DNA from: a virus
Lineage: Duplodnaviria > Heunggongvirae > Uroviricota > Caudoviricetes
DNA: 38,756 nucleotides
Virus record (IMG/VR): IMGVR_UViG_646311923_000010
Reading direction: 5' to 3' (one strand)
Shown: in pieces, positions 2,215 to 29,104 of the stretch
How positions within the stretch are numbered: the stretch's first letter is position 1
How the letters are laid out: every line of letters starts with the position of its first letter
Notes under the pieces: model-generated
Told to the model about the DNA's origin: nothing
Seen by the model: the letters and a program-made list of their open reading frames with translations, nothing else
The model's database searches: none
Translations under genes and position numbers: made by a program

Positions 2215-3192
2215 TTACATTCCTCCCAAGGGATTAAACCTCACCGCATCCTGCAAGTAATCCGGCGCAAGATGGGCATAAATCATCGTTGTCTGAATCT
2301 TTGCGTGCCCCAGAATTTTCTGGAGCGTCAGAATATTGCCGCCGTTCATCATGAAATGACTGGCGAAGGTGTGGCGCAGCGCATGAACAGCCTGGCCGTC
2401 AGGAACATCAGGTGCGACCGTTTTGATGACATCGCGAACCAATGAATAATCCAGCGTCGGAAACACCAGTTTCCCGCCCCGTTTTTTGATCTTTTCAAAC
2501 AGGCTTTCAGTAATAGGAACGGTACGGTTTTTGCTGTTCTTCGTTTTTGAAAAAGTGATTCGACAATGAAGAACACGGCGCTGCTCCAGTGCCGCTACCT
2601 CGCCCCATCGCGCCCCGGTCGACAGAAGGATTTCGACAGCCAGTCGTTCATCGGGATTTTCAGCCAGTGCATCCAGCAACTGAACACATTCAGACTTACT
2701 CAGATATCCCATTTCGCGCTCGTTAACCTTCATTCCTTTAAGGCCTTGAACGGGGTTATCGTTAAGAAAATGGCCGGATGAGATGAGTGCGGTAAACATC
2801 GCGCTTAACGCCCCAATCTCTCGATTTATGGTGCTGGGCTGTATCCCCTGCTCTATCCTGGACACACGTAGCTCGGTGAGCATCGTTGTATTAAGTTTAT
2901 GCACGCACGGGTCATCCATTGCTTCACTCAAGCGCAGCAATTTAAGGCGCGTGTTATGCCCTGACTTCATTAGCTGGCCGTGGTATTTCCACCACAAGTC
3001 AATAAGCACTGACAGAGGACGGCGATCAATGGAGTTTCCTTTCCACTCATTGTTATGCTGTTGCGCCAGCACCCACCGCTCATATAAAACTGCATCCGAT
3101 TTCGTTTTAAATTTTTTGCGAATGCGTTTGCCTTTACGCCCCTCCGGGCGCATGTCAAGAAGATACCCTCCCGGAATTGATTTTATGCTCAT
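2215..3192 (-). CDS. int: Tyrosine integrase, P2 Int family
   Basis: ORF 2215..3342; start set at ATG 3192 (MSIKSIPGG...) by alignment with recalled P2 Int N-terminus; C-terminal HALRHTFASHF...LGH...TTMIYAH catalytic region. Confidence 0.9.
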   Translation of the reverse strand: MSIKSIPGGYLLDMRPEGRKGKRIRKKFKTKSDAVLYERWVLAQQHNNEWKGNSIDRRPLSVLIDLWWKYHGQLMKSGHNTRLKLLRLSEAMDDPCVHKLNTTMLTELRVSRIEQGIQPSTINREIGALSAMFTALISSGHFLNDNPVQGLKGMKVNEREMGYLSKSECVQLLDALAENPDERLAVEILLSTGARWGEVAALEQRRVLHCRITFSKTKNSKNRTVPITESLFEKIKKRGGKLVFPTLDYSLVRDVIKTVAPDVPDGQAVHALRHTFASHFMMNGGNILTLQKILGHAKIQTTMIYAHLAPDYLQDAVRFNPLGGM

Positions 3193-7526: not shown

Positions 7527-10349
7527 ATGACGGCAGAGTACATCAGGGACTGGCAACAACCGCGCCACGCAGTGGGGCGTGAAGGAACGGGGATCCCCGC
7601 TCCTAAATCCGCGCTTTCCTCCTGGCTGGATGCCTACCGGGTAGAGAACGAGCGCCGCCAGGAAATGGCTGATGCGGCGTTCTCCGCCACGCCGCTGGGC
7701 AACCTGATTAATAAAAACCTGGACGCACAGGAAAAACAGGACAAAACCATCACACTGGCAGGAGACGCCAGAAAACAGGCACGCGGCGCGGTGGATGAAG
7801 CCATGGCCTCGCTGCGCCTGCTGCCGTCCTATCTGCGCGATCCGCTTATTCGCCACCTCTCCTTCCTGCGCAAAAAACAGGAAGCCGATCGCCGGAAAGG
7901 CAAAAAGAGCTGGCAGGCGGAACGCTATGCACGCGGAACCCTGCGCAAAATATTCGAACGTCTGGACCGCACCGACCACCGCTGGCTGACACCGGGTTAT
8001 CGCTCCCTTGCCGGACGCGAACGCCTGGATGATTTGCTTTACCTGCCGCAGCTCAACAAACACCAGATACAGACGCTGGCCACCATGACGGCGGCGATGT
8101 TCAGCAGCACTTTCGAAAAACTCTGCGATGGCTTTGGCGCGACCGATGGCGAGCTGACCATGGATGTAACGCTGAAGGCGTATCAGATGCTGGCCCGCAT
8201 GGCGTTACACCTGCACGCCATGCCTCCACATTATGACGCACTGACAACAGACAAAGACCGGAGGAACGAACCGGACACGGAGCTGCTGCCGGGTGCAATC
8301 CTTCGCCTGACCTGTGCGGAATGGTGGAAACGCAAACTGTGGCTGTTACGTTGCGAGTGGCGGGAAGAACAACTCCGCGCCGCCTGTCTGGTTTCCAGAA
8401 AAACATCGCCCTATCTGAGTCAGGACGCATTAAGCGAGTTTCGCGCGCAGCGCGAGAAAACACGCGATTTCCTGAAAAGTTTCATGCTGGAAAACGAAGA
8501 CGGGTTCACGATTGATCTCGAGACAGTGTATTACGCGGGAGTAAGTAACCCGGTTCACCGTAAGGCAGAAATGATGGCCACCATGAAGGGGCTGGAACTT
8601 CTGGCCGAAGCCCGTGGCGACAGAGCGGTGTTTCTGACTGTCACCTGCCCGTCAAAATACCACGCCACAACAGAGAACGGTAATCCGAATCCCAAATGGA
8701 ACGGGGCCACCATGCGCGACTCCAGCGATTACCTGGTTAACACGTTTTTTGCGGCAGTCCGCAAAAAACTGAACCGCGACGGTCTGCGCTGGTATGGCAT
8801 CCGCACGGTGGAGCCTCACCATGACGGCACCGTGCACTGGCATATGATGGTCTTTGCTCATCCGGAAGAAATCGACACCATTGTGTCCCACACCCGCGAT
8901 ATTGCCATTCAGGAAGATCGTCACGAGCTGGGTGATGATATTACCCCACGCTTTAAGGCAGAGTACGTCGACGGTTCGAAAGGTACGCCGACCAGCTACA
9001 TCGCCACCTACATCGGAAAGAACCTGGACAGCCGCGCCGTGGGTGGCATTGACCCGAAAACAAGCAAGCCACGCGTTGATCACGAAACCGGAAAATCAAT
9101 GGCCGAGAGCGTGGAACGCGCCATCGGCTGGGCGCGCCTTCACCGCGTCCGCCAGTTCCAGTTCTTTGGTATCCCCTCCCGTCAGGTATGGCGTGAACTC
9201 CGCCGCCTTGCCAGTCAGATGGCCCGCAACCCGGAAGGTCCACAACGTCTGGAAAATGACGCAATGGATGCGGTACTCGCTGCCGCTGATGCCGGGTGTT
9301 TTGCCACCTACATTGAGAAACAGGGTGGCGTACTTGTTCCACGCAAGGATTACCTGATTCGCACCGCCTACGACCTCGCAGAAGAGCTGAACGATTACGG
9401 CGAGCAAAGCGTACAGATTTACGGGATCTGGTCGCCACAAATCGGGGAATCTTCCCGCGTGTGCACGCACCCGGATAACTGGAAGCTGGTAAGACGTAAA
9501 CCGGAAGCGGAAGACAGCGCCCGCGAAAATGGTTTTGACCTTCAGGGCGGCCCTGCCGCCCCTTGGACTCGTGGCAATAACTGTCCCCGTGTACAGGAAA
9601 CGAACAACAACGGGACAGAACAGCCGGAAGAACGGCCAGCACCGTGGCCGCAGCTCCCTGATGGCGTTGAAGTGAACGAATGGATGCGCTCACTGAAACG
9701 GCACGAACGCCGGGCGCTGATGCGTTCGCTTCGTGACAAACAGGCAAAAAACAGCAGTGATGAAATGCAGAGCTGGACACAGAGCCGCAAACAGCAGCGG
9801 CCTTTGCCTGATAACCACGAATTACTCGCTAAAGAATGGCGGGAATCTGCCGAATCTCTCGGCCTGCATATCGGTGAACAGCAGATGCAGCACCTGTTAC
9901 GGGGCGGCAGCCTGTACGTTGACGGCAGCATCATTGCACCGCAGGGATTTGAAATTGTACGCAAACCAGATACCCGCCCGGACAGCCGAATCACGCAGCT
10001 CTGGCAGCGCCTGAGCCGTAATCACGGCGTAAGCAGCACAGAGATCCGCCATAACCCGGTCGCCAGCTATCTGGAACAACTGGGGGCATCAGACCCCGAA
10101 GCCGCCGCACGTCTGGCATCCACACTTCAGCAGGACCAGAACACCATGAAAACCCCCGTTACCGTGCTTTCTGACATGCTGCGCGCCATCCGTGACGCAG
10201 AGCACGCACAGAGAATCAGTGAAACCACTGAACGCGCCCACCGCAAAGCAGACCTGCTGCGGGGTAGCCTGACCAGTGGAAACAAAAAACAGACAGAAAC
10301 GGGACTCACAAATCCCGTAAATGAGCAAAAAACGCGCCGCGATATATGA
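7527..10349 (+). CDS. A: Rolling-circle replication initiator endonuclease, P2 gpA family
   Basis: 940-aa ORF; HUH-type motif VHWHMMVFA and tyrosine pair YIATYIGKNLD characteristic of gpA-type nicking proteins; canonical position in P2 early operon. Confidence 0.85.
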   Translation: MTAEYIRDWQQPRHAVGREGTGIPAPKSALSSWLDAYRVENERRQEMADAAFSATPLGNLINKNLDAQEKQDKTITLAGDARKQARGAVDEAMASLRLLPSYLRDPLIRHLSFLRKKQEADRRKGKKSWQAERYARGTLRKIFERLDRTDHRWLTPGYRSLAGRERLDDLLYLPQLNKHQIQTLATMTAAMFSSTFEKLCDGFGATDGELTMDVTLKAYQMLARMALHLHAMPPHYDALTTDKDRRNEPDTELLPGAILRLTCAEWWKRKLWLLRCEWREEQLRAACLVSRKTSPYLSQDALSEFRAQREKTRDFLKSFMLENEDGFTIDLETVYYAGVSNPVHRKAEMMATMKGLELLAEARGDRAVFLTVTCPSKYHATTENGNPNPKWNGATMRDSSDYLVNTFFAAVRKKLNRDGLRWYGIRTVEPHHDGTVHWHMMVFAHPEEIDTIVSHTRDIAIQEDRHELGDDITPRFKAEYVDGSKGTPTSYIATYIGKNLDSRAVGGIDPKTSKPRVDHETGKSMAESVERAIGWARLHRVRQFQFFGIPSRQVWRELRRLASQMARNPEGPQRLENDAMDAVLAAADAGCFATYIEKQGGVLVPRKDYLIRTAYDLAEELNDYGEQSVQIYGIWSPQIGESSRVCTHPDNWKLVRRKPEAEDSARENGFDLQGGPAAPWTRGNNCPRVQETNNNGTEQPEERPAPWPQLPDGVEVNEWMRSLKRHERRALMRSLRDKQAKNSSDEMQSWTQSRKQQRPLPDNHELLAKEWRESAESLGLHIGEQQMQHLLRGGSLYVDGSIIAPQGFEIVRKPDTRPDSRITQLWQRLSRNHGVSSTEIRHNPVASYLEQLGASDPEAAARLASTLQQDQNTMKTPVTVLSDMLRAIRDAEHAQRISETTERAHRKADLLRGSLTSGNKKQTETGLTNPVNEQKTRRDI

Positions 10350-10425
10350 AGCGCGCACAAAACAGGCAAAAGCGGGATTTAAAAATCCTGTAACCGATTA
10401 ATTAATCAACATAAGGAAAAGCGAC

Positions 10426-11385
10426 ATGAAAATTTGTATCGACGACGGCTCCACCAACATCAAGCTGGCATGGACTGAGAACGGCGAACGCCGCAACGCC
10501 ATCAGCCCGAACAGCTTCAAGTCGGAATGGTCTGCGCCGTTCGGTGGTACGCAGCCCGCGAACTACATGCTTGATGGCGTGCGCTATGGTTTTGATCCGG
10601 TCAGCGATCGCTTTGTCCAGACGACCGACACGCAATACCAGTACAGCGATGTGAATGTCATTGCCATTCATCACGCGCTGGTCAAATCAGGCATCACACC
10701 ACAGGAAGTGGATGTGGTTGTCACCCTGCCACTGAGCGAGTATTTCGATACAAACGCACAGCCGGACATGGCCAACATCAACCGCAAAAAAGCGAACGTC
10801 ATGCGCCCGGTGGAGTACCAGAACGGCGAAGCATTCACTATCCGTAACGTACGGGTTATGCCTGAATCCATTCCGGCAGGCTTTAAGGCACTGGCTGACA
10901 TGAGTCCGTTTGAATCCCTACTGATTGTGGATTTGGGCGGAACCACGCTGGATGTGGCAAAGGTTCAGGGGCAACTGGCAGGTATCAGCCAGGTGTTTTG
11001 CGATCCACACGTAGGCGTTTCTCTGATGGCCGATGCCGTACTGTCGGTGATGGCCACTAACGGTATGCGCACCAGTCACCACATCGCCAATACCATTATC
11101 GAACATCGCCATGATGAAGCCTGGCTGCGCCAGCACATCCACAATGACGCGCATTACGCCAGCCTGATGGCGGTTATTCGTGAAAAGGAAGAAACACTGA
11201 AACAACGCGTGATCCGCGCGCTGGCGGTTTTTTCGGGTTACGGGCGGGTGATGGTTGTCGGTGGCGGGGCGGAGATTGTGGCACCCGCTATCCGCGAAGC
11301 CTGCGGAGTTAATGCGACTTTCATCGCGGACGGGGTGCCACAGTTTGCTCTGGTTAATGGGCTGTACGCAATGGACAAGGAGTAA
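10426..11385 (+). CDS. parM: ParM/StbA-like actin-fold partition ATPase
   Basis: 319-aa ORF; N-terminus MKICIDDGSTNIKLAW and motifs YSDVNVIAIHHAL, VMPESIPAG, LIVDLGGTTLD, VMVVGGGAE align with recalled plasmid R1 ParM. Confidence 0.8.
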   Translation: MKICIDDGSTNIKLAWTENGERRNAISPNSFKSEWSAPFGGTQPANYMLDGVRYGFDPVSDRFVQTTDTQYQYSDVNVIAIHHALVKSGITPQEVDVVVTLPLSEYFDTNAQPDMANINRKKANVMRPVEYQNGEAFTIRNVRVMPESIPAGFKALADMSPFESLLIVDLGGTTLDVAKVQGQLAGISQVFCDPHVGVSLMADAVLSVMATNGMRTSHHIANTIIEHRHDEAWLRQHIHNDAHYASLMAVIREKEETLKQRVIRALAVFSGYGRVMVVGGGAEIVAPAIREACGVNATFIADGVPQFALVNGLYAMDKE

Positions 11386-11389
11386 ACCA

Positions 11390-11701
11390 ATGACGACACC
11401 AACCAGACGGATAAGTTTCTATCTGAAGCCCGCCGCCGTCAAGAACGAAGGCGAAGCATGCGCATGGCTGGACAGCCTTACACCAGAAGCCCGCAAAAGC
11501 GGCCAACGCGTGGCTTTTCTGGCCGGGCTGGCACTTCTGAAAATGAATCCGGCAGAGGCTTACCGACTGGCTGCATGGGCTGACGATGAGACGTTATCAG
11601 TGACACAAACCAAGACAGAACGCCCCGAGTCACAGCCAGTACCAACCGCACAGATAACCAGTCAGATGGCCGGAAATATCAGGGCGTTATTTCCTGAATA
11701 A
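11390..11701 (+). CDS. parR: ParR-like centromere-binding adaptor
   Basis: ORF 11255..11701; ATG at 11390 four nt after parM-like stop; RISFYLKP...LDSLTPEARKSGQRVAFLAGLAL resembles recalled R1 ParR N-terminal region. Confidence 0.6.
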   Translation: MTTPTRRISFYLKPAAVKNEGEACAWLDSLTPEARKSGQRVAFLAGLALLKMNPAEAYRLAAWADDETLSVTQTKTERPESQPVPTAQITSQMAGNIRALFPE

Positions 11702-11764
11702 CACAACATCAGGGCGAGTTCGCCCTGCTCTCCACCTCAGAACATAAACAAGGAGAACGACATA

Positions 11765-12289
11765 ATGAGCGAAATCAACTATCAGGCATTACGTGAGGCA
11801 GCACAAAACTATCAATCGACGCTGGCGTGGTATGAGGCCATCGCGGATAACCCAAATGCTGAGCAGGATTGTAACGAAGCAGTGGCGGCGTTTAAGCGTC
11901 AAATCCGTCATCAGGAAATGGACATTATCGCCGAGCTGCTGGAAGAACTGGAAACCAAAGACAACAGGATCGCTGAACTGGAAAAAATCGCCACTGACCA
12001 TGCACTGAAATTCCAGAAAGCACAGGACGCATTAAAGTATGCCGCTTTGCTGCATAGCAGGACGGCGCAACAAACAAATAATTTTGCAGTATCGCTTCCG
12101 GACATAAGCGAATATTTCATTAATGACGTATTTCAGCCCTTGCGATACGAGCGGGATGTTGAAAGAGCCATCATAAAGGCTGGCGGAAAAGCATTGTGGC
12201 AGGAGAAACACGAGGACAGAACGCATCAGTCCTGCGATGTAAATCGTGGATGGTTTAGCCCACTGACGACAGATAAAAATAACACCTGA
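11765..12289 (+). CDS. Ead/Ea22-like coiled-coil protein (function unknown)
   Basis: 174-aa ORF; N-terminus MSEINYQALREAAQ typical of Ea22-like phage proteins as recalled; central coiled-coil segment. Confidence 0.5.
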   Translation: MSEINYQALREAAQNYQSTLAWYEAIADNPNAEQDCNEAVAAFKRQIRHQEMDIIAELLEELETKDNRIAELEKIATDHALKFQKAQDALKYAALLHSRTAQQTNNFAVSLPDISEYFINDVFQPLRYERDVERAIIKAGGKALWQEKHEDRTHQSCDVNRGWFSPLTTDKNNT

Positions 12290-12328
12290 TCCCCCTCAAA
12301 CCAGGGCGATAATCGCGCATCGCCCTTC

Positions 12329-12355
12329 TGCACAATAGTGCACAAATTTGCACAA
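12329..12355. repeat. Three direct TGCACAA repeats at exact 10-bp phasing
   Basis: TGCACAA at 12329, 12339 and 12349; follows a GGGCGAT-loop-ATCGCCC hairpin at 12304-12325. Confidence 0.7.
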
Positions 12356-12779
12356 TTTTTTTGAACGACTTTTTACCCTTCCGGCCCGCATGGCGGCTGG
12401 ATCCGTCAAGGATCCGTGCGTGCACAAAAAAACGCGTTTTTTCTGCGCGCAGGTGACGGGGGAACAGCCCGCGTTTCAGGGGGGGAATAGCGTTCCCTTA
12501 ACGATGTCGCAGCGACACGACAGAATGGCCGTATTTCTCACGCTGAGCGTGAAAAATACGTGAGGGATTCTGGTTTGATGGGGTGAAAGGTAAGGCCGTC
12601 AAAATCGCACTGAGGCGGCGAGAACATGCAGTCAGCGCAGTGGGATTGCGTAAGAGTCTGACCGTCGATGATGGCAATAAGCAGGAAAGCGTCGTGAAAT
12701 TATCTGACTGATACAGGAGCTGGAGAGTCGGGGCATAAATTTTTTATGCCCCGGCGAAGCAGCAGACAAGCGAAGCGCG

Positions 12780-13826
12780 TCAGGATGTGGGCTGGGTATC
12801 TAACAGTGCGTAAGGGTTAAAGCGGATCACCTCTTCGCCAAGCCAGTCATTGATGTGCTTCATGGCCTCCATGACGGGCATCAGCTCGTTAATTGCGTAA
12901 ACCCGCGCGGCCTTCTCCACATCACCAAACGCACTTTTTTCACCCGGCATCGCCCCCATCAGTTGCGGCGGAACGCGGTGCGCAGCCAGTACATCATCAC
13001 GGGATGCCGCCTTAACATTCATGAACTCATCCTTTGCGGTGATCTGCTGGAACGGCAAAATTTGCACACCTTCTTTGCCCCCGTTGGGCGCATGAATGAG
13101 CACGTTTTTAAATGCACCACCACCACGCGCACCCTGTAACGTTTCTTTCAGGGAGTCCATGCTTTCGCGGTTTACCTGCGCTGCACCGATGTAGATGATG
13201 CACCCGGCGTGGGATCCGTTGTCGTAGTACAGTTTTCTGAACATGTCCGCCGAATGAGAAAGGCTGGCCGAGAGTAATGCGCCAAGATATTCCGGCATGC
13301 CGTAGATTTCCTGGTTAATATCCGGATTCATCAGGTGGCACACTTTGCCAGGGCGAAACTGAAACGCATCCTTGCCATCCTGCACATACCACCATGATTC
13401 AAGATCGCTTCCGCGTCGCATGTATTTCGCCAGGGCGTGCCGTAATTTAAGCGGTTCGCCGAGCATATTGCTTCGAAGCTCAAGGAATGCGTTACCGAAC
13501 ACAAACCAGTCCAGCGCCAGCGCCGAGAAATCCTGCCGGGAAAGCAGCGGGTGCGGGATGTAGCAACCGAGCAATACATTGCGCTTAAAGTAAAGCGCAG
13601 ACTGATGCCAGGACGTTTGCCGGGCGGCTCTTGCCAGACCGTACCAGTCCACCGGGGTTTCATACCACCGCCCGTTATCAGCACAGTACATATTGTCCAG
13701 CAGGTCATGCCCGGTCAGGCGATAAGGACCATCAAATGTGAATGCACTGAGCGATGATTCTTTCCTGAGCGCATCAGCGAGATCAATGCGTGAACTCATG
13801 CGCACTTTTTTATTTTTTCTGCTCAT
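12780..13826 (-). CDS. Q: Portal protein, P2 gpQ family
   Basis: 348-aa ORF; start ATG overlaps P stop (ATGA) as in P2; position and size match gpQ. Confidence 0.88.
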   Translation of the reverse strand: MSRKNKKVRMSSRIDLADALRKESSLSAFTFDGPYRLTGHDLLDNMYCADNGRWYETPVDWYGLARAARQTSWHQSALYFKRNVLLGCYIPHPLLSRQDFSALALDWFVFGNAFLELRSNMLGEPLKLRHALAKYMRRGSDLESWWYVQDGKDAFQFRPGKVCHLMNPDINQEIYGMPEYLGALLSASLSHSADMFRKLYYDNGSHAGCIIYIGAAQVNRESMDSLKETLQGARGGGAFKNVLIHAPNGGKEGVQILPFQQITAKDEFMNVKAASRDDVLAAHRVPPQLMGAMPGEKSAFGDVEKAARVYAINELMPVMEAMKHINDWLGEEVIRFNPYALLDTQPTS

Positions 13827-26094: not shown

Positions 26095-26628
26095 ATGATG
26101 CACTTAAAAAACATTACTGCTGGCAACCCTAAAACAAAAGAGCAATACCAGCTAACGAAACAATTTAACATCAAATGGCTTTATTCAGAGGATGGAAAAA
26201 ACTGGTATGAGGAACAAAAGAATTTCCAGCCAGACACTTTGAAAATGGTCTATGACCATAACGGCGTTATTATTTGTATTGAAAAGGATGTTTCAGCAAT
26301 TAATCCGGAAGGCGCAAGCGTCGTTGAATTACCTGATATTACAGCAAATCGCCGTGCTGACATTTCGGGTAAATGGATGTTCAAAGATGGCGTAGTGGTA
26401 AAGCGAACTTATACCGAGGAAGAGCAGAGGCAGCAGGCGGAAAATGAAAAGCAAAGCCTGCTACAGCTCGTCAGGGATAAAACCCAGCTATGGGACTCAC
26501 AGCTACGGCTGGGCATCATTTCCGACGAGAATAAACAAAAATTAACAGAGTGGATGCTCTTTGCGCAGAAAGTCGAATCTACAGACACTTCCAGCCTGCC
26601 AGTAACGTTTCCCGAACAACCAGAATGA
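26095..26628 (+). CDS. Tail fibre assembly chaperone (gpG/Tfa)
   Basis: 177-aa ORF immediately after H; N-terminus MMHLKNITAGNPKT and DITANRRAD motif shared with the minus-strand paralogue. Confidence 0.8.
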   Translation: MMHLKNITAGNPKTKEQYQLTKQFNIKWLYSEDGKNWYEEQKNFQPDTLKMVYDHNGVIICIEKDVSAINPEGASVVELPDITANRRADISGKWMFKDGVVVKRTYTEEEQRQQAENEKQSLLQLVRDKTQLWDSQLRLGIISDENKQKLTEWMLFAQKVESTDTSSLPVTFPEQPE

Positions 26629-26631
26629 GAG

Positions 26632-26651
26632 AAGGCCCGATATCGGGCCTT
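26632..26651. terminator. Bidirectional hairpin between convergent tail-fibre assembly genes
   Basis: Perfect 20-bp palindrome AAGGCCCGATATCGGGCCTT flanked by A/T runs. Confidence 0.6.
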
Positions 26652-26656
26652 AATTT

Positions 26657-27184
26657 TTACTCAGGCTTTTGTGGCCATTCGGGCTTTGCCGTATCCACAC
26701 GGCTGACCATAACACTGTAGCGTTCCCATGCTTCCAGTCGGCTACGCTCCTCATCCGTCGCCATATTCAGCCTGACAGCGCGCTCCAGTGGCTGAATAAC
26801 GCTTTCCGCTTCGGAAAGTAACGCGGCCTTTTGTGATTCGGCCTGTTGTTGCTGCTCGTCTGCCGTATAAATCCGTTTAACTACAGCTCCGTCCTTAAAC
26901 ATCCACTTACCGGAATCATCGGCCCGACGATTGGCTGTTATATCGGGGACCTCAACGACGTTAAAACCTTCAGGGTTAAGCGTGGAGGCATCTTTAGTTA
27001 TGGCAACAATAATATTATGTTCATCGTAAACAATCTTTATTGTGTCTTCCTGAAAATTCTTTACCTCTTCATACCAGTTTTTTCCGTCTTCGGACCACAA
27101 CCAGATAACGTCAAAATTCTTTGTTAATTCGTACTGTTTCAGTGTTTTAGCGTTACCCGCTTTAATGTTCTTTAAGTGCATCAT
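26657..27184 (-). CDS. Alternative tail fibre assembly chaperone (Tfa')
   Basis: 175-aa ORF on minus strand, paralogous to 26095..26628. Confidence 0.8.
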
Positions 27185-27185
27185 A

Positions 27186-28424
27186 TTAAACGCTCGCTAC
27201 ATTATACCAGGTGCCATTTATATACTTTTGAACTGGTCTGTAATAAACGCCAGCTATATTATCGGCAGAATTTGACCCTGTATCCTGAACATTTATACCA
27301 GACAATACATGACCTGAAGGGCACTGGAAGCTCCATGTTTGCCAGTTGTTCACACCATAATATTGCTGTGAACCAAGCCGAACATCTTTCACATATCGGG
27401 CATCAATGTTACCCCAGTTGCTTGGTTGTATCTGACCGTTTACAGCAAATGTCACCGAGTTATCTGTATTTCGCTGACTATAGAAATGCCAGCCTGAATC
27501 ATCACCAAGCTCTGCAACAGTTGGTCTTGACGAATTTCCCCACAAGTTAAATGATGCATTACGGGCAGCGGTATTTGCACTTGAAAGTGTGAATAACTTA
27601 CTTTCCCCAGCCTGAATACCCTTTAATGATATTGCTGAACCATTTCTAAAGCGGAATACATGCACACCATTAGCATAAGCATCCAGCACCCCATCACCAT
27701 TTTGTTTAAACCCGGTATCGTTATCTCCTAAAACTATTGAATTGCTACCCAGGGCATTAGCCGTTCCAATCCCCAGATTTCCGCTAAAAATGGCATTAAT
27801 ACCGAATATTGAGTGAGAACAATAAAACCCTCGCCCATTGTTAAAATCAAGAATAGCTTGTGCGTTCGTGCTTTCTGTCGCGGGATTAGTTGCTCCCCAC
27901 TTATATGTTGTTTGACCGACGGTATAATCCTGAGTTGGAACAATAACCGTTAGCCCTTCTTCAGCAGAAACCCGCACAGGAAAAGCCCTGCCTTCAACGT
28001 AAAAAACGCTGCATACATCATCTTCTTTAAGGCTTGTTACAATGGAATGGATTGCGCGCTCATTAGTCTGATACGTCGAAAAATAACCTGCCGCATATGA
28101 ACCACGATCAGTCCAGCCACCAGGCATTACCATTCCATTGAATTCGCAGTTATTCATTTCGTAATTACCACCGGCAGATGTGGTCGTTATAATCACTCTG
28201 GAAGCCAGCTCGCCAGTGCTGCCTGTGGAACGCCGGAAAATAACTGGATACCACTTTCCACCAACTGCATTAGACGGCGCATTAAATGCGTACTGCTGCA
28301 TTCCTTTTTTCTTATCCACCTCGCCTTTGCTGTAAACATTAATGTTACTCAGGAAGCGATCCTTATCAGGAATATCTGCGCCGTTCTGGTTTTTCTGTAA
28401 TGCGCCAGAAGCCTGATTTACCGT
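27186..28424 (-). CDS. Alternative tail-fibre variable C-terminal segment (Hv'), promoterless and startless in this orientation
   Basis: Open frame continues upstream of the track ORF (27186..28319) to the crossover site; first ~25 codons after the site are identical to those in H ([24 protein letters not shown]). Confidence 0.7.
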
Positions 28425-28450
28425 TTCCTGTAAACCGAGGTTTTAGATAA
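28425..28450. other. DNA invertase crossover site (gix/cix-like), right
   Basis: TTCCTGTAAACCGAGGTTTTAGATAA, reverse complement of the left site with 3 mismatches. Confidence 0.8.
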
Positions 28451-28504
28451 TGGCCGTTTCCGGCCTGCATGGCATGATTTGCGCTTTTGGACGGGAGATT
28501 CAGT

Positions 28505-29104
28505 GTGCTGATTGGTTATGTAAGGGTATCAACAAATGACCAGAATACAGACCTGCAACGAAACGCTCTTGTTTGTGCAGGATGTGAACAAATATTTGAA
28601 GATAAATTAAGCGGGACAAAGACAGACCGACCGGGATTAAAACGCGCTTTAAAGCGGCTTCAAAAAGGTGACACGCTGGTTGTCTGGAAACTGGATCGCC
28701 TCGGGCGAAGCATGAAACATCTGATTTCTCTCGTCGGGGAACTACGGGAGCGAGGGATTAATTTTCGCAGTCTGACCGACAGCATAGATACATCTTCTCC
28801 AATGGGGCGTTTTTTCTTCCACGTTATGGGTGCCCTGGCTGAAATGGAACGTGAATTAATTGTTGAACGTACACTGGCCGGACTGGCGGCAGCGCGCGCA
28901 CGGGGGCGCACAGGCGGACGTCGCCCGAAGCTGACAAAAGAACAGCATGAGCAAATAGCTAGGCTGATCAAAAACGGTCATGACAGGAAACAACTGGCGA
29001 TCATTTACGACATCGGCATATCGACAATTTATCGTTATCACCCTGTGGGCGATATACAGGCTGAAGAAACAACCAGGCAGACTCAGGAAAATGAAAACCG
29101 CTAA
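28505..29104 (+). CDS. Serine recombinase DNA invertase (Gin/Pin/Cin/Hin family)
   Basis: ORF 28487..29104; GTG at 28505 gives MLIGYVRVSTNDQNTDLQRNAL, the classic invertase N-terminus with catalytic Ser; C-terminal HTH. Confidence 0.9.
   Translation: MLIGYVRVSTNDQNTDLQRNALVCAGCEQIFEDKLSGTKTDRPGLKRALKRLQKGDTLVVWKLDRLGRSMKHLISLVGELRERGINFRSLTDSIDTSSPMGRFFFHVMGALAEMERELIVERTLAGLAAARARGRTGGRRPKLTKEQHEQIARLIKNGHDRKQLAIIYDIGISTIYRYHPVGDIQAEETTRQTQENENR

Follow-up and report, generated by a model that had tools for sequence, protein, structure and literature searches.

A candidate type II (ParMRC-type) partition cassette at the gpA-Q locus of P88-like prophages

One question raised by the virus record IMGVR_UViG_646311923_000010 is why an integrating phage of the P2 family should carry genes of the kind that segregate plasmids. 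The record, an IMG/VR stretch of 38,756 nucleotides termed here the window, is an integrated P88-like prophage (Xuanwuvirus, P2-family); over positions 10350-12779 it agrees at 100% identity with the chromosome of E. coli O103:H2 strain 12009, and its nearest named phages are P88, phiSM and further Xuanwuvirus of Peduoviridae. Between the gpA homologue, which encodes the replication endonuclease, and the portal gene Q lie parM, for an actin-like segregation ATPase, parR, for a predicted ribbon-helix-helix adaptor, and an Ea22-like gene. About one quarter of complete E. coli genomes contain this plasmid-segregation machine inside an integrated prophage. With slightly more confidence than doubt, and taking the genes jointly with the mechanism and role proposed below, we regard positions 10247-11701 (1.45 kb) as a complete, selectively maintained type II (ParMRC-type) cassette of a phage-specific clade.

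That the gpA-gpQ locus can hold a type II partition cassette is already published, and the genes are routinely annotated. Rousset et al. 2022 reported a putative partition system at the gpA-gpQ hotspot of about one quarter of P2-like phages and suggested plasmid-like maintenance (PMC9122126), and the PGAP names 'plasmid segregation protein ParM', 'plasmid partitioning/stability family protein' and 'ead/Ea22-like family protein' recur in hundreds of genomes, so that an earlier note on this DNA, made from the letters alone, overstated the case in calling such a system unexpected in an integrating P2-type phage; its placement of the locus in the tin/old hotspot of P2 agrees with the position between gpA and Q. 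The phiSM paper classes the gene as a 'fitness' gene and places the phage in pdxB (PMC6456863). A literature search found no functional study of P88-like parMR, and literature and supplements gave nothing usable on expression in O157:H7 lysogens (CP-933T). What is added here are the boundaries of the cassette, the palindromes linked to it, the location of the cargo between parR and cos, and the linkage of the TGCACAA repeats to cos.

The ParM and ParR proteins

The product of parM matches both StbA_N (PF06406; 1.8e-82, 275 bits) and the ParM C-terminal domain (PF21523, model short name ParM_N; 6.3e-69, 231 bits) far over the cut-off, is assigned to phrog_691, a 'partition protein', and aligns over residues 2-316 with R1 ParM (1mwk) at E 8e-93 and about 50% identity. 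Its nucleotide-binding motifs are all kept, namely phosphate-1 (IDDGSTNIKL, the pattern required being DxGxxxxK), catalytic (MPESIPAG, with PES required), phosphate-2 (DLGGTTLD) and adenosine (GGGAE). The gene follows gpA in the same orientation after a gap of 76 bp, and its TAA stop, ending at 11385, is separated from the ATG of parR at 11390 by the four nucleotides ACCA. The earlier note had described a ParM homologue followed 4 nt later by a ParR-like protein, had proposed profile alignment to the two families and had named absence of the actin-fold ATPase motifs as grounds for rejection: the pair is genuine, both families are matched above cut-off, and DDGSTNIK, PES, DLGGTTLD and GGGAE are all present.

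ParR matches Plasmid_stab_B (PF10784) at 4.7e-25 and 87.7 bits against a cut-off of 25, and matches over its full length phrog_2515, a phage 'partition protein'. The single sequence retrieved antibody noise only from the PDB, and a profile of ParR alleles was needed, the best solved-structure match of which is the pB171 ParR (2jd3; E 0.011, residues 8-74). The protein appears to be laid out as an N-terminal DNA-binding domain, a variable linker (about residues 62-90) and a conserved C-terminal helix ending in NIRALFPE. An AlphaFold2 monomer built on a 15-sequence alignment, its low confidence (pLDDT 56) confining its use to secondary structure, predicts helices at 20-29, 32-52, 54-61 and 87-100, the last of which would come after a disordered linker. 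The N-terminal strand RRISFYLKP and the two DNA-binding helices are the same in all alleles, the linker and C-terminus differing between them; within the latter the motif N-[IA]-x-x-L-F-P (N-I-x-x-[LF]-F-P among the alleles) is kept in every allele and is found also in a plasmid ParR (L100) and in divergent phage ParRs, and the C-terminus of R1 ParR, KKNAMKLIN (checked against pETEC_80), is related.

A separate observation concerns the mosaic structure of parR. DNA homology to many relatives ends about 55 nt, that is the first 18 or so codons, into the gene, and the alleles downstream of that point are 53-56% identical beside ParM proteins that are 99% identical (loci L013, L021, L033, L038 and L044). 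At least five C-terminal variants occur, including QMAGNIRALFPE, QVKKNIQAFFPK and KIKKNIQTLFPE.

The leader of parM and the distribution of the cassette

Where does the cassette begin? In the prophage of AR_0013, which belongs to the same gpA lineage and has no parMR, the shared homology stops at about 10246. From 10247 to the start of parM the window is 72% identical to a Hafnia relative, as against 51% for the adjoining coding sequence of gpA on the upstream side. This leader holds two 38-nt direct-repeat units, each ending in an 18-bp palindrome (IR1 and IR2; Table 1) of the consensus CGGGATT-N4-AATCCCG, to which these are the only two good matches within the 38.7-kb window. Both palindromes are perfect in relatives, occupy -126 and -53 in the majority of the approximately 85 scored related loci that reach that far upstream, and are missing from the parMR-less AR_0013; in the Hafnia relative the arms are kept and the centre is variable, although dS for parM has reached 0.63. 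More widely, each of the six phage lineages examined has a YGGGA motif between -118 and -132, and neither of the two plasmid types has one; in the divergent phage loci the motif usually recurs at -39 to -60, in direct or inverted orientation.

The flanks of the palindromes are A/C-rich and in composition resemble the R1 iterons, which in the R1-type locus of pETEC_80 form 11-bp arrays upstream of parM. Because two palindromic units fall far below the ten iterons of R1, we grade this region as a candidate parC/operator, short of an established centromere. As to transcription, a sigma-70 consensus scan found no promoter within 9800-13000, and nothing resembling a terminator was detected on the plus strand from gpA to parM; by inspection, a weak promoter-like element, TTTAAA-16 nt-ATTAAT, can be made out overlapping IR2.

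The distribution of the genes is that of a phage trait. parM is carried, at 95-100% identity, by 1279-1303 of 5426 complete E. coli genomes (24%), and the shared 3' end of gpA by 1355, such that parMR accompanies about 94% of this gpA type (1279 vs 1355, two separate searches that were not cross-tabulated). Among the best 5000 PLSDB records every plasmid ParM is at most 52% identical, save in six records which carry this prophage. In Plesiomonas, Hafnia, Serratia and Enterobacter, on the other hand, ParMs of 54-62% identity are likewise encoded downstream of gpA in P2-like prophages; these divergent lineages were found by protein search and contig look-ups, a scan of genome contigs with ParM alone yielding three near-identical loci only. 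The low identity of the PLSDB matches and the existence of divergent phage-borne relatives together suggest that the clade has long been associated with phages and was not captured recently. One locus of odd provenance was noted, a 226-kb 'Vagococcus sp.' contig (L008, NZ_JBQPOM010000071.1) with a parM 98% identical to that of E. coli and with palindromes and cos repeats alike; Vagococcus being Gram-positive, the assembly is probably contaminated or mislabelled.

Selection on the two genes is unequal in strength: dN/dS is 0.04-0.07 for parM, indicating strong purifying selection, and 0.19-0.31 for parR, indicating moderate selection. This bears on whether the cassette might be a non-functional remnant of an ancient plasmid-phage recombination that merely hitch-hikes with the prophage, as its dispensability in AR_0013 and a role so far deduced would allow. 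The purifying selection on parM, the intact reading frames and motifs, the retention of the cassette down to 54% ParM identity at a genomic position that is always alike, and its association, by the two separate counts, with about 94% of this gpA type in E. coli make this very unlikely.

A further possibility is that the phage leads a plasmid-prophage life, with ParMRC ensuring long-term, low-copy plasmid persistence, for example in hosts without an attachment site, as proposed by Rousset et al. 2022 (PMC9122126) and, as one of several options, by the earlier note. The par system is complete, one deposited circular 'plasmid' of 34.5 kb is a complete P88-like genome, and a 26.8-kb Shigella record is similar. 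Nevertheless, 1441 of the 1443 places occupied by the cassette in complete E. coli genomes are chromosomal, an integrase is encoded in all loci whose whole prophage was examined, and phiSM lysogens are integrated (PMC6456863). Phage-sized P2-like 'plasmid' records moreover mostly lack parMR, among them pENTAS02 and others from E. coli, Arsenophonus, Enterobacter, Salmonella and Pseudomonas, and carriage of parMR is not enriched in them. P2-type gpA rolling-circle replication is not known to serve as a copy-controlled plasmid replicon. We therefore consider a plasmid lifestyle unlikely, and less likely than a positioning of circular phage DNA.

Two records outside the chromosome deserve description in their own right. 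In NZ_CP148288.1 (L017), from an E. coli isolated from a cat, the complete P88-like genome of 34,461 bp is given as a circular non-mobilizable 'plasmid'; it carries parMR, a Hok/Gef gene and the integrase, the circle being joined where the integrase meets the methylase/hok end. Either the assembly captured an excised, replicating form or the plasmid state is genuine. In NZ_CP110658.1, a 271,960-bp plasmid of Salmonella enterica, a P88-like prophage (ParM 99.7%, portal 100%) appears to be located at about 116.7-120.8 kb, and here the phage would have integrated in a plasmid instead of the chromosome.

Table 1. Features of the cassette and its surroundings, in coordinates of the window
Feature	Position	Strand	Remarks
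btuC (host gene)	start of window		annotated record
Phage integrase	about 2215-3192		after btuC; annotated record
gpA homologue, replication endonuclease, 940 aa	7527-10349		last gene of early operon; PF05840 5.5e-131
Cassette left end, non-coding leader, candidate parC/operator	10247-10425	+	spans last ~34 gpA codons
38-nt direct-repeat units	10283-10320, 10356-10393		73 bp apart; each ends in 18-bp palindrome
IR1, CGGGAcT-CACA-AATCCCG	10300-10317		-126 from parM start; consensus CGGGATT-N4-AATCCCG
IR2, CGGGATT-TAAA-AATCCtG	10373-10390		-53 from parM start; covers -35 of weak promoter-like element
parM, actin-like segregation ATPase, 319 aa	10426-11385	+	PF06406, PF21523, R1 ParM match
parR, ribbon-helix-helix adaptor (predicted), 103 aa	11390-11701	+	PF10784, phrog_2515, pB171 ParR profile match
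Hairpin CAGGGCGAgttCGCCCTG	11710-11727		after parR; left edge of cargo slot
Ead/Ea22-like gene, 174 aa	11765-12289	+	PF13935
Hairpin CAGGGCGAT-N8-ATCGCCCT	12303-12328		right edge of cargo slot
TGCACAA, three copies in 10-bp phase, then T7 run	12329-12355 (12329, 12339, 12349)	+	124, 114, 104 bp from cos core
GGATCCGT, two copies	12399-12406, 12410-12417	+	inner cos accessory element
Fourth TGCACAA	12421-12427	+	inner cos accessory element
A7-CGCG-T6 palindrome	12426-12442		inner cos accessory element
Putative 19-nt cohesive-end core GGTGACGGGGGAACAGCCC	12453-12471	+	13/19 identical to P2 cos GGCGAGGCGGGGAAAGCAC
Perfect 11-bp-stem hairpin CGGGGCATAAA-TTT-TTTATGCCCCG	12729-12753		just before end of Q; P2 tQ counterpart
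Portal gene Q	12780-13826	minus	after par/Ea22 genes

The terminase gene P lies with Q on the strand opposite to gpA, parM, parR and the Ea22-like gene. Elsewhere in the window, at about 26095-29104 (L001 35746-38755), two opposed tail-fibre assembly genes and a hypothetical gene stand beside a 'recombinase family protein' (record annotation), a segment that looks like an invertible host-range segment of the Gin/Cin type.

The cos-proximal repeats and the cargo slot

The earlier note had located three TGCACAA repeats in exact 10-bp phase, the GGATCCGT direct repeat and the A7-CGCG-T6 palindrome downstream of the par genes, and had suggested that they could be the centromere. Their coordinates and phasing stand, a fourth TGCACAA at 12421 having been missed. 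The total of eleven TGCACAA copies in 38.7 kb is ordinary (35 of 100 shuffles reach 11), whereas the clustering of four of them within 100 bp is unusual. With what, then, are these repeats associated? Their distance from the putative cohesive-end core is constant at 123 bp in 80 IMG/VR loci and in other relatives, while the parR stop is anywhere between 35 bp (in the Hafnia locus without cargo) and 3010 bp away from them, and homology among the loci starts exactly at the first TGCAC whichever cargo precedes it. The core itself, GGTGACGGGGGAACAGCCC, is unchanged in pENTAS02, in Hafnia and in the E. coli relatives.

Loci without the par genes point in the same direction. The AR_0013 prophage retains, at identical spacing, the three TGCACAA repeats, both copies of GGATCCGT, the fourth TGCACAA, the A7CGCGT6 palindrome and the core. 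In pENTAS02, a P2-like element of Enterobacter soli in which tblastn finds neither ParM nor ParR, the TGCACAA block and the core are 100% conserved with diverged sequence intervening, only the TGCACAAAAAA part of the inner elements being conserved. Comparable repeats occur also at the cos sites of the classical phages: measured from the cohesive end, TGCA repeats are positioned at -124/-114/-104/-32 in the window and at -123/-111/-101/-29 in P2, and the TGCA(T) distances of 186 and P4, given after adding the 19 nt missing from their records, match those of P2 (overall -123/-124, -111, -101 and about -29 to -35). The P2 record, which carries no parMR at this position, annotates the tQ terminator at the place before Q that corresponds to the hairpin of the window. 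Phages 186 and P4 likewise have no parMR at the cos-proximal position. The satellite P4 is known to share the core cos packaging signal with P2 (PMC9122126).

On account of the fixed spacing to the core, the retention without parMR and the homology with the P2, 186 and P4 cos sites, we assign the repeats to cos: read from the sequence, TGCACAA, GGATCCGT and A7CGCGT6 are accessory parts of the packaging site, with TGCACAA the outermost, and are presumably bound by terminase or a bending protein. That ParR should instead bind the phased TGCACAA repeats, with GGATCCGT and A7CGCGT6, as its centromere is suggested by the presence, on DNA that also carries parMR, of three exactly phased copies and a fourth nearby, iterated sites being typical of centromeres; given, in addition to the foregoing, that parC lies upstream of parM in known ParMRC systems (R1 type examined), we regard this as highly improbable, and the palindromes upstream of parM are likely the better cis-site candidate. 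For annotation, the border of the cos site is given by the TGCACAA repeats, and with it the right-hand limit of the defence/cargo hotspot.

Some further features of this region may be recorded. On the Q side of the putative cohesive end, about 60 bp away, there is a near-perfect palindrome with 15-nt arms (12530-12560; CGTATTTCTCACGCT/AGCGTGAAAAATACG), kept in E. coli relatives and partly in Hafnia, and GGGGGAAYAGC is directly repeated (12458, 12481); the palindrome and this repeat may belong to the left side of cos. None of the phage records in the collection searched begins at the putative core, and that of phage 500465-2 is a badly delimited prophage with host genes, uninformative for cos ends.

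The linkage of the repeats to cos leaves the interval between parR and the repeats as what is, on sequence comparison, the real variable slot. In the window it is filled by the Ea22-like gene, the third gene of the earlier note, whose product matches PF13935 (2.4e-15, 57.7 bits against a cut-off of 27) over residues 2-118, the C-terminal 55 or so residues lying outside the match, as well as PHROGs of unknown function; a search against PADLOC yielded nothing beyond a coiled-coil match that was not significant. In relatives its place is taken by 20 or more other inserts, and the gene is variable cargo unrelated to the par cassette. Beside this, two related hairpins (CAGGGCGA...TCGCCCTG) flank the Ea22-like cargo; the cargo-less Hafnia locus (L010, about 2120-2155) has one such hairpin between parR and the TGCAC repeats, and the left hairpin is kept in many other cargo classes. 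This hairpin may be where the hotspot recombines or takes up inserts, or it may be a terminator of which insertion has made a second copy. In AR_0013 (L103 5739-8299) the slot is filled by a DNA adenine methylase and an AAA family ATPase, a candidate defence pair, in a prophage whose portal gene has an internal stop.

The surroundings of the slot raise the possibility that parMR itself serves lysogenic conversion or exclusion in trans, with ParR or ParM filaments hampering incoming plasmids or phages that bear a cognate site, by incompatibility or silencing. The cos-proximal gpA-gpQ hotspot is rich in anti-phage systems (PMC9122126), the mosaic ParR alleles beside near-constant ParM recall diversification under conflict, and a weak promoter-like element can be seen over IR2. 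However, neither ParM nor ParR matches a PADLOC model, the variation in ParR is confined to the linker and C-terminus and spares the DNA-reading N-terminus RRISFYLKP, and the true variable cargo is downstream of parR. The cassette also has a candidate cis site of its own and is co-oriented with gpA, whereas tin and old of P2 have their own promoter and occupy the opposite strand. Taken together, these features make an exclusion function rather improbable.

A possible role and its relation to known systems

How could a partition cassette be of use to a phage that integrates? That ParR binds the palindromes, when the genes are expressed and what they do for the phage are points that we infer from the sequence. 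ParR would bind just upstream of parM, the likeliest sites being the two CGGGATT-N4-AATCCCG palindromes with their A/C-rich flanks, and its C-terminal helix would capture the ends of ATP-ParM filaments, which in growing would drive apart the DNA molecules bearing the site. Since the cassette is almost always found in an integrated, integrase-bearing prophage, co-oriented directly after gpA, the substrate is most likely the phage's own circular extrachromosomal DNA following infection or induction. The gpA-proximal place in the operon suggests expression alongside replication, and the positioning or dispersal of circles could improve either replication or inheritance ahead of integration or lysis.

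Several points weigh against this picture. There are only two palindromic units, compared with about ten iterons in R1 parC, and the upstream site may be an autoregulatory operator only; the A-tracts upstream of parM have a marginal periodicity at 10.5 bp, one that 23 of 500 shuffles attain. The promoter-like element at IR2 could direct expression in the lysogen, where the cis site would be chromosomal. The cassette is dispensable to the lineage, as AR_0013 lacks it, and the role in the phage life cycle is argued by analogy with AlpAC. Finally, the hotspot usually houses lysogenic-conversion and defence genes (PMC9122126).

Tentatively, and with more reserve than we attach to the cassette as such, we suggest that ParMRC is a dedicated cytoskeletal module of the phage and not a plasmid relic, long retained in a large clade of P2-family phages of Enterobacterales. 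On this view its transcription would be shared with that of gpA, and two palindromes would serve as a minimal centromere by which the circular monomers that replication produces, or the infecting genome, are separated or positioned. Replication or packaging would gain in efficiency, or both daughters would be more likely to inherit the phage before integration. Were this so, it would be a very small natural ParMRC, consisting of two palindromes and a 103-aa ParR besides ParM, and, as an organiser of phage DNA, a Gram-negative counterpart of AlpAC in genetically tractable phages (P88, phiSM). The boundaries of the cassette and its palindromes make function in an integrating phage directly testable.

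Comparison with known systems sets these proposals in context. In the occurrence of a partition system the loci correspond to the class of Rousset et al. 2022, with identical locus and genes and a similar frequency (their one quarter or so of P2-like phages vs parM in 24% of E. coli genomes); there the partition system was one of many hotspot arrangements and was not analysed. As regards cos, the window resembles P2, 186 and P4 in having TGCA repeats at about -124, -111/-114, -101/-104 and about -30 from a G-rich 19-nt core and a hairpin before Q, and differs in that the unit is TGCACAA, not TGCAT, that the first spacing is 10 bp, not 12-13 bp, and that the core of the P88 group is putative.

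With R1/NR1 ParMRC (StbA/StbB/parC) and pB171 ParMR the cassette shares an actin-like ParM with all motifs, a parR directly downstream and PF10784, and with R1 also a candidate cis site upstream of parM whose A/C-rich flanks resemble the iterons. It differs from R1 and pB171 in its carrier, type II systems typically residing on low-copy plasmids whose inheritance they ensure and this one being borne by an integrating P2-family prophage, and in a ParM that is at most 52% identical to those of plasmids among the best 5000 PLSDB records. Its ParR is shorter, with 103 aa as against 117-140, the middle helix region of the R1 protein being absent, and compared with R1 its cis region has two 38-nt units with 18-bp palindromes in place of 2 x 5 eleven-bp iterons.

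The closest functional model may be offered by AlpC/AlpA of the integrated prophage CGP3 in Corynebacterium glutamicum, in which the co-transcribed adaptor binds alpS upstream of its own operon and the system, which is induced early, is required if the phage DNA, excised and circular, is to replicate efficiently (PMC4446434). As with P88-like parMR, an integrated prophage here combines an actin-like protein with a DNA-binding adaptor. The difference is one of descent as well as of host, for AlpC is a distant actin-like protein of an actinobacterial prophage, whereas the P88-like proteins, known here from sequence, are true orthologues of the ParM and ParR found in enterobacterial plasmid systems.

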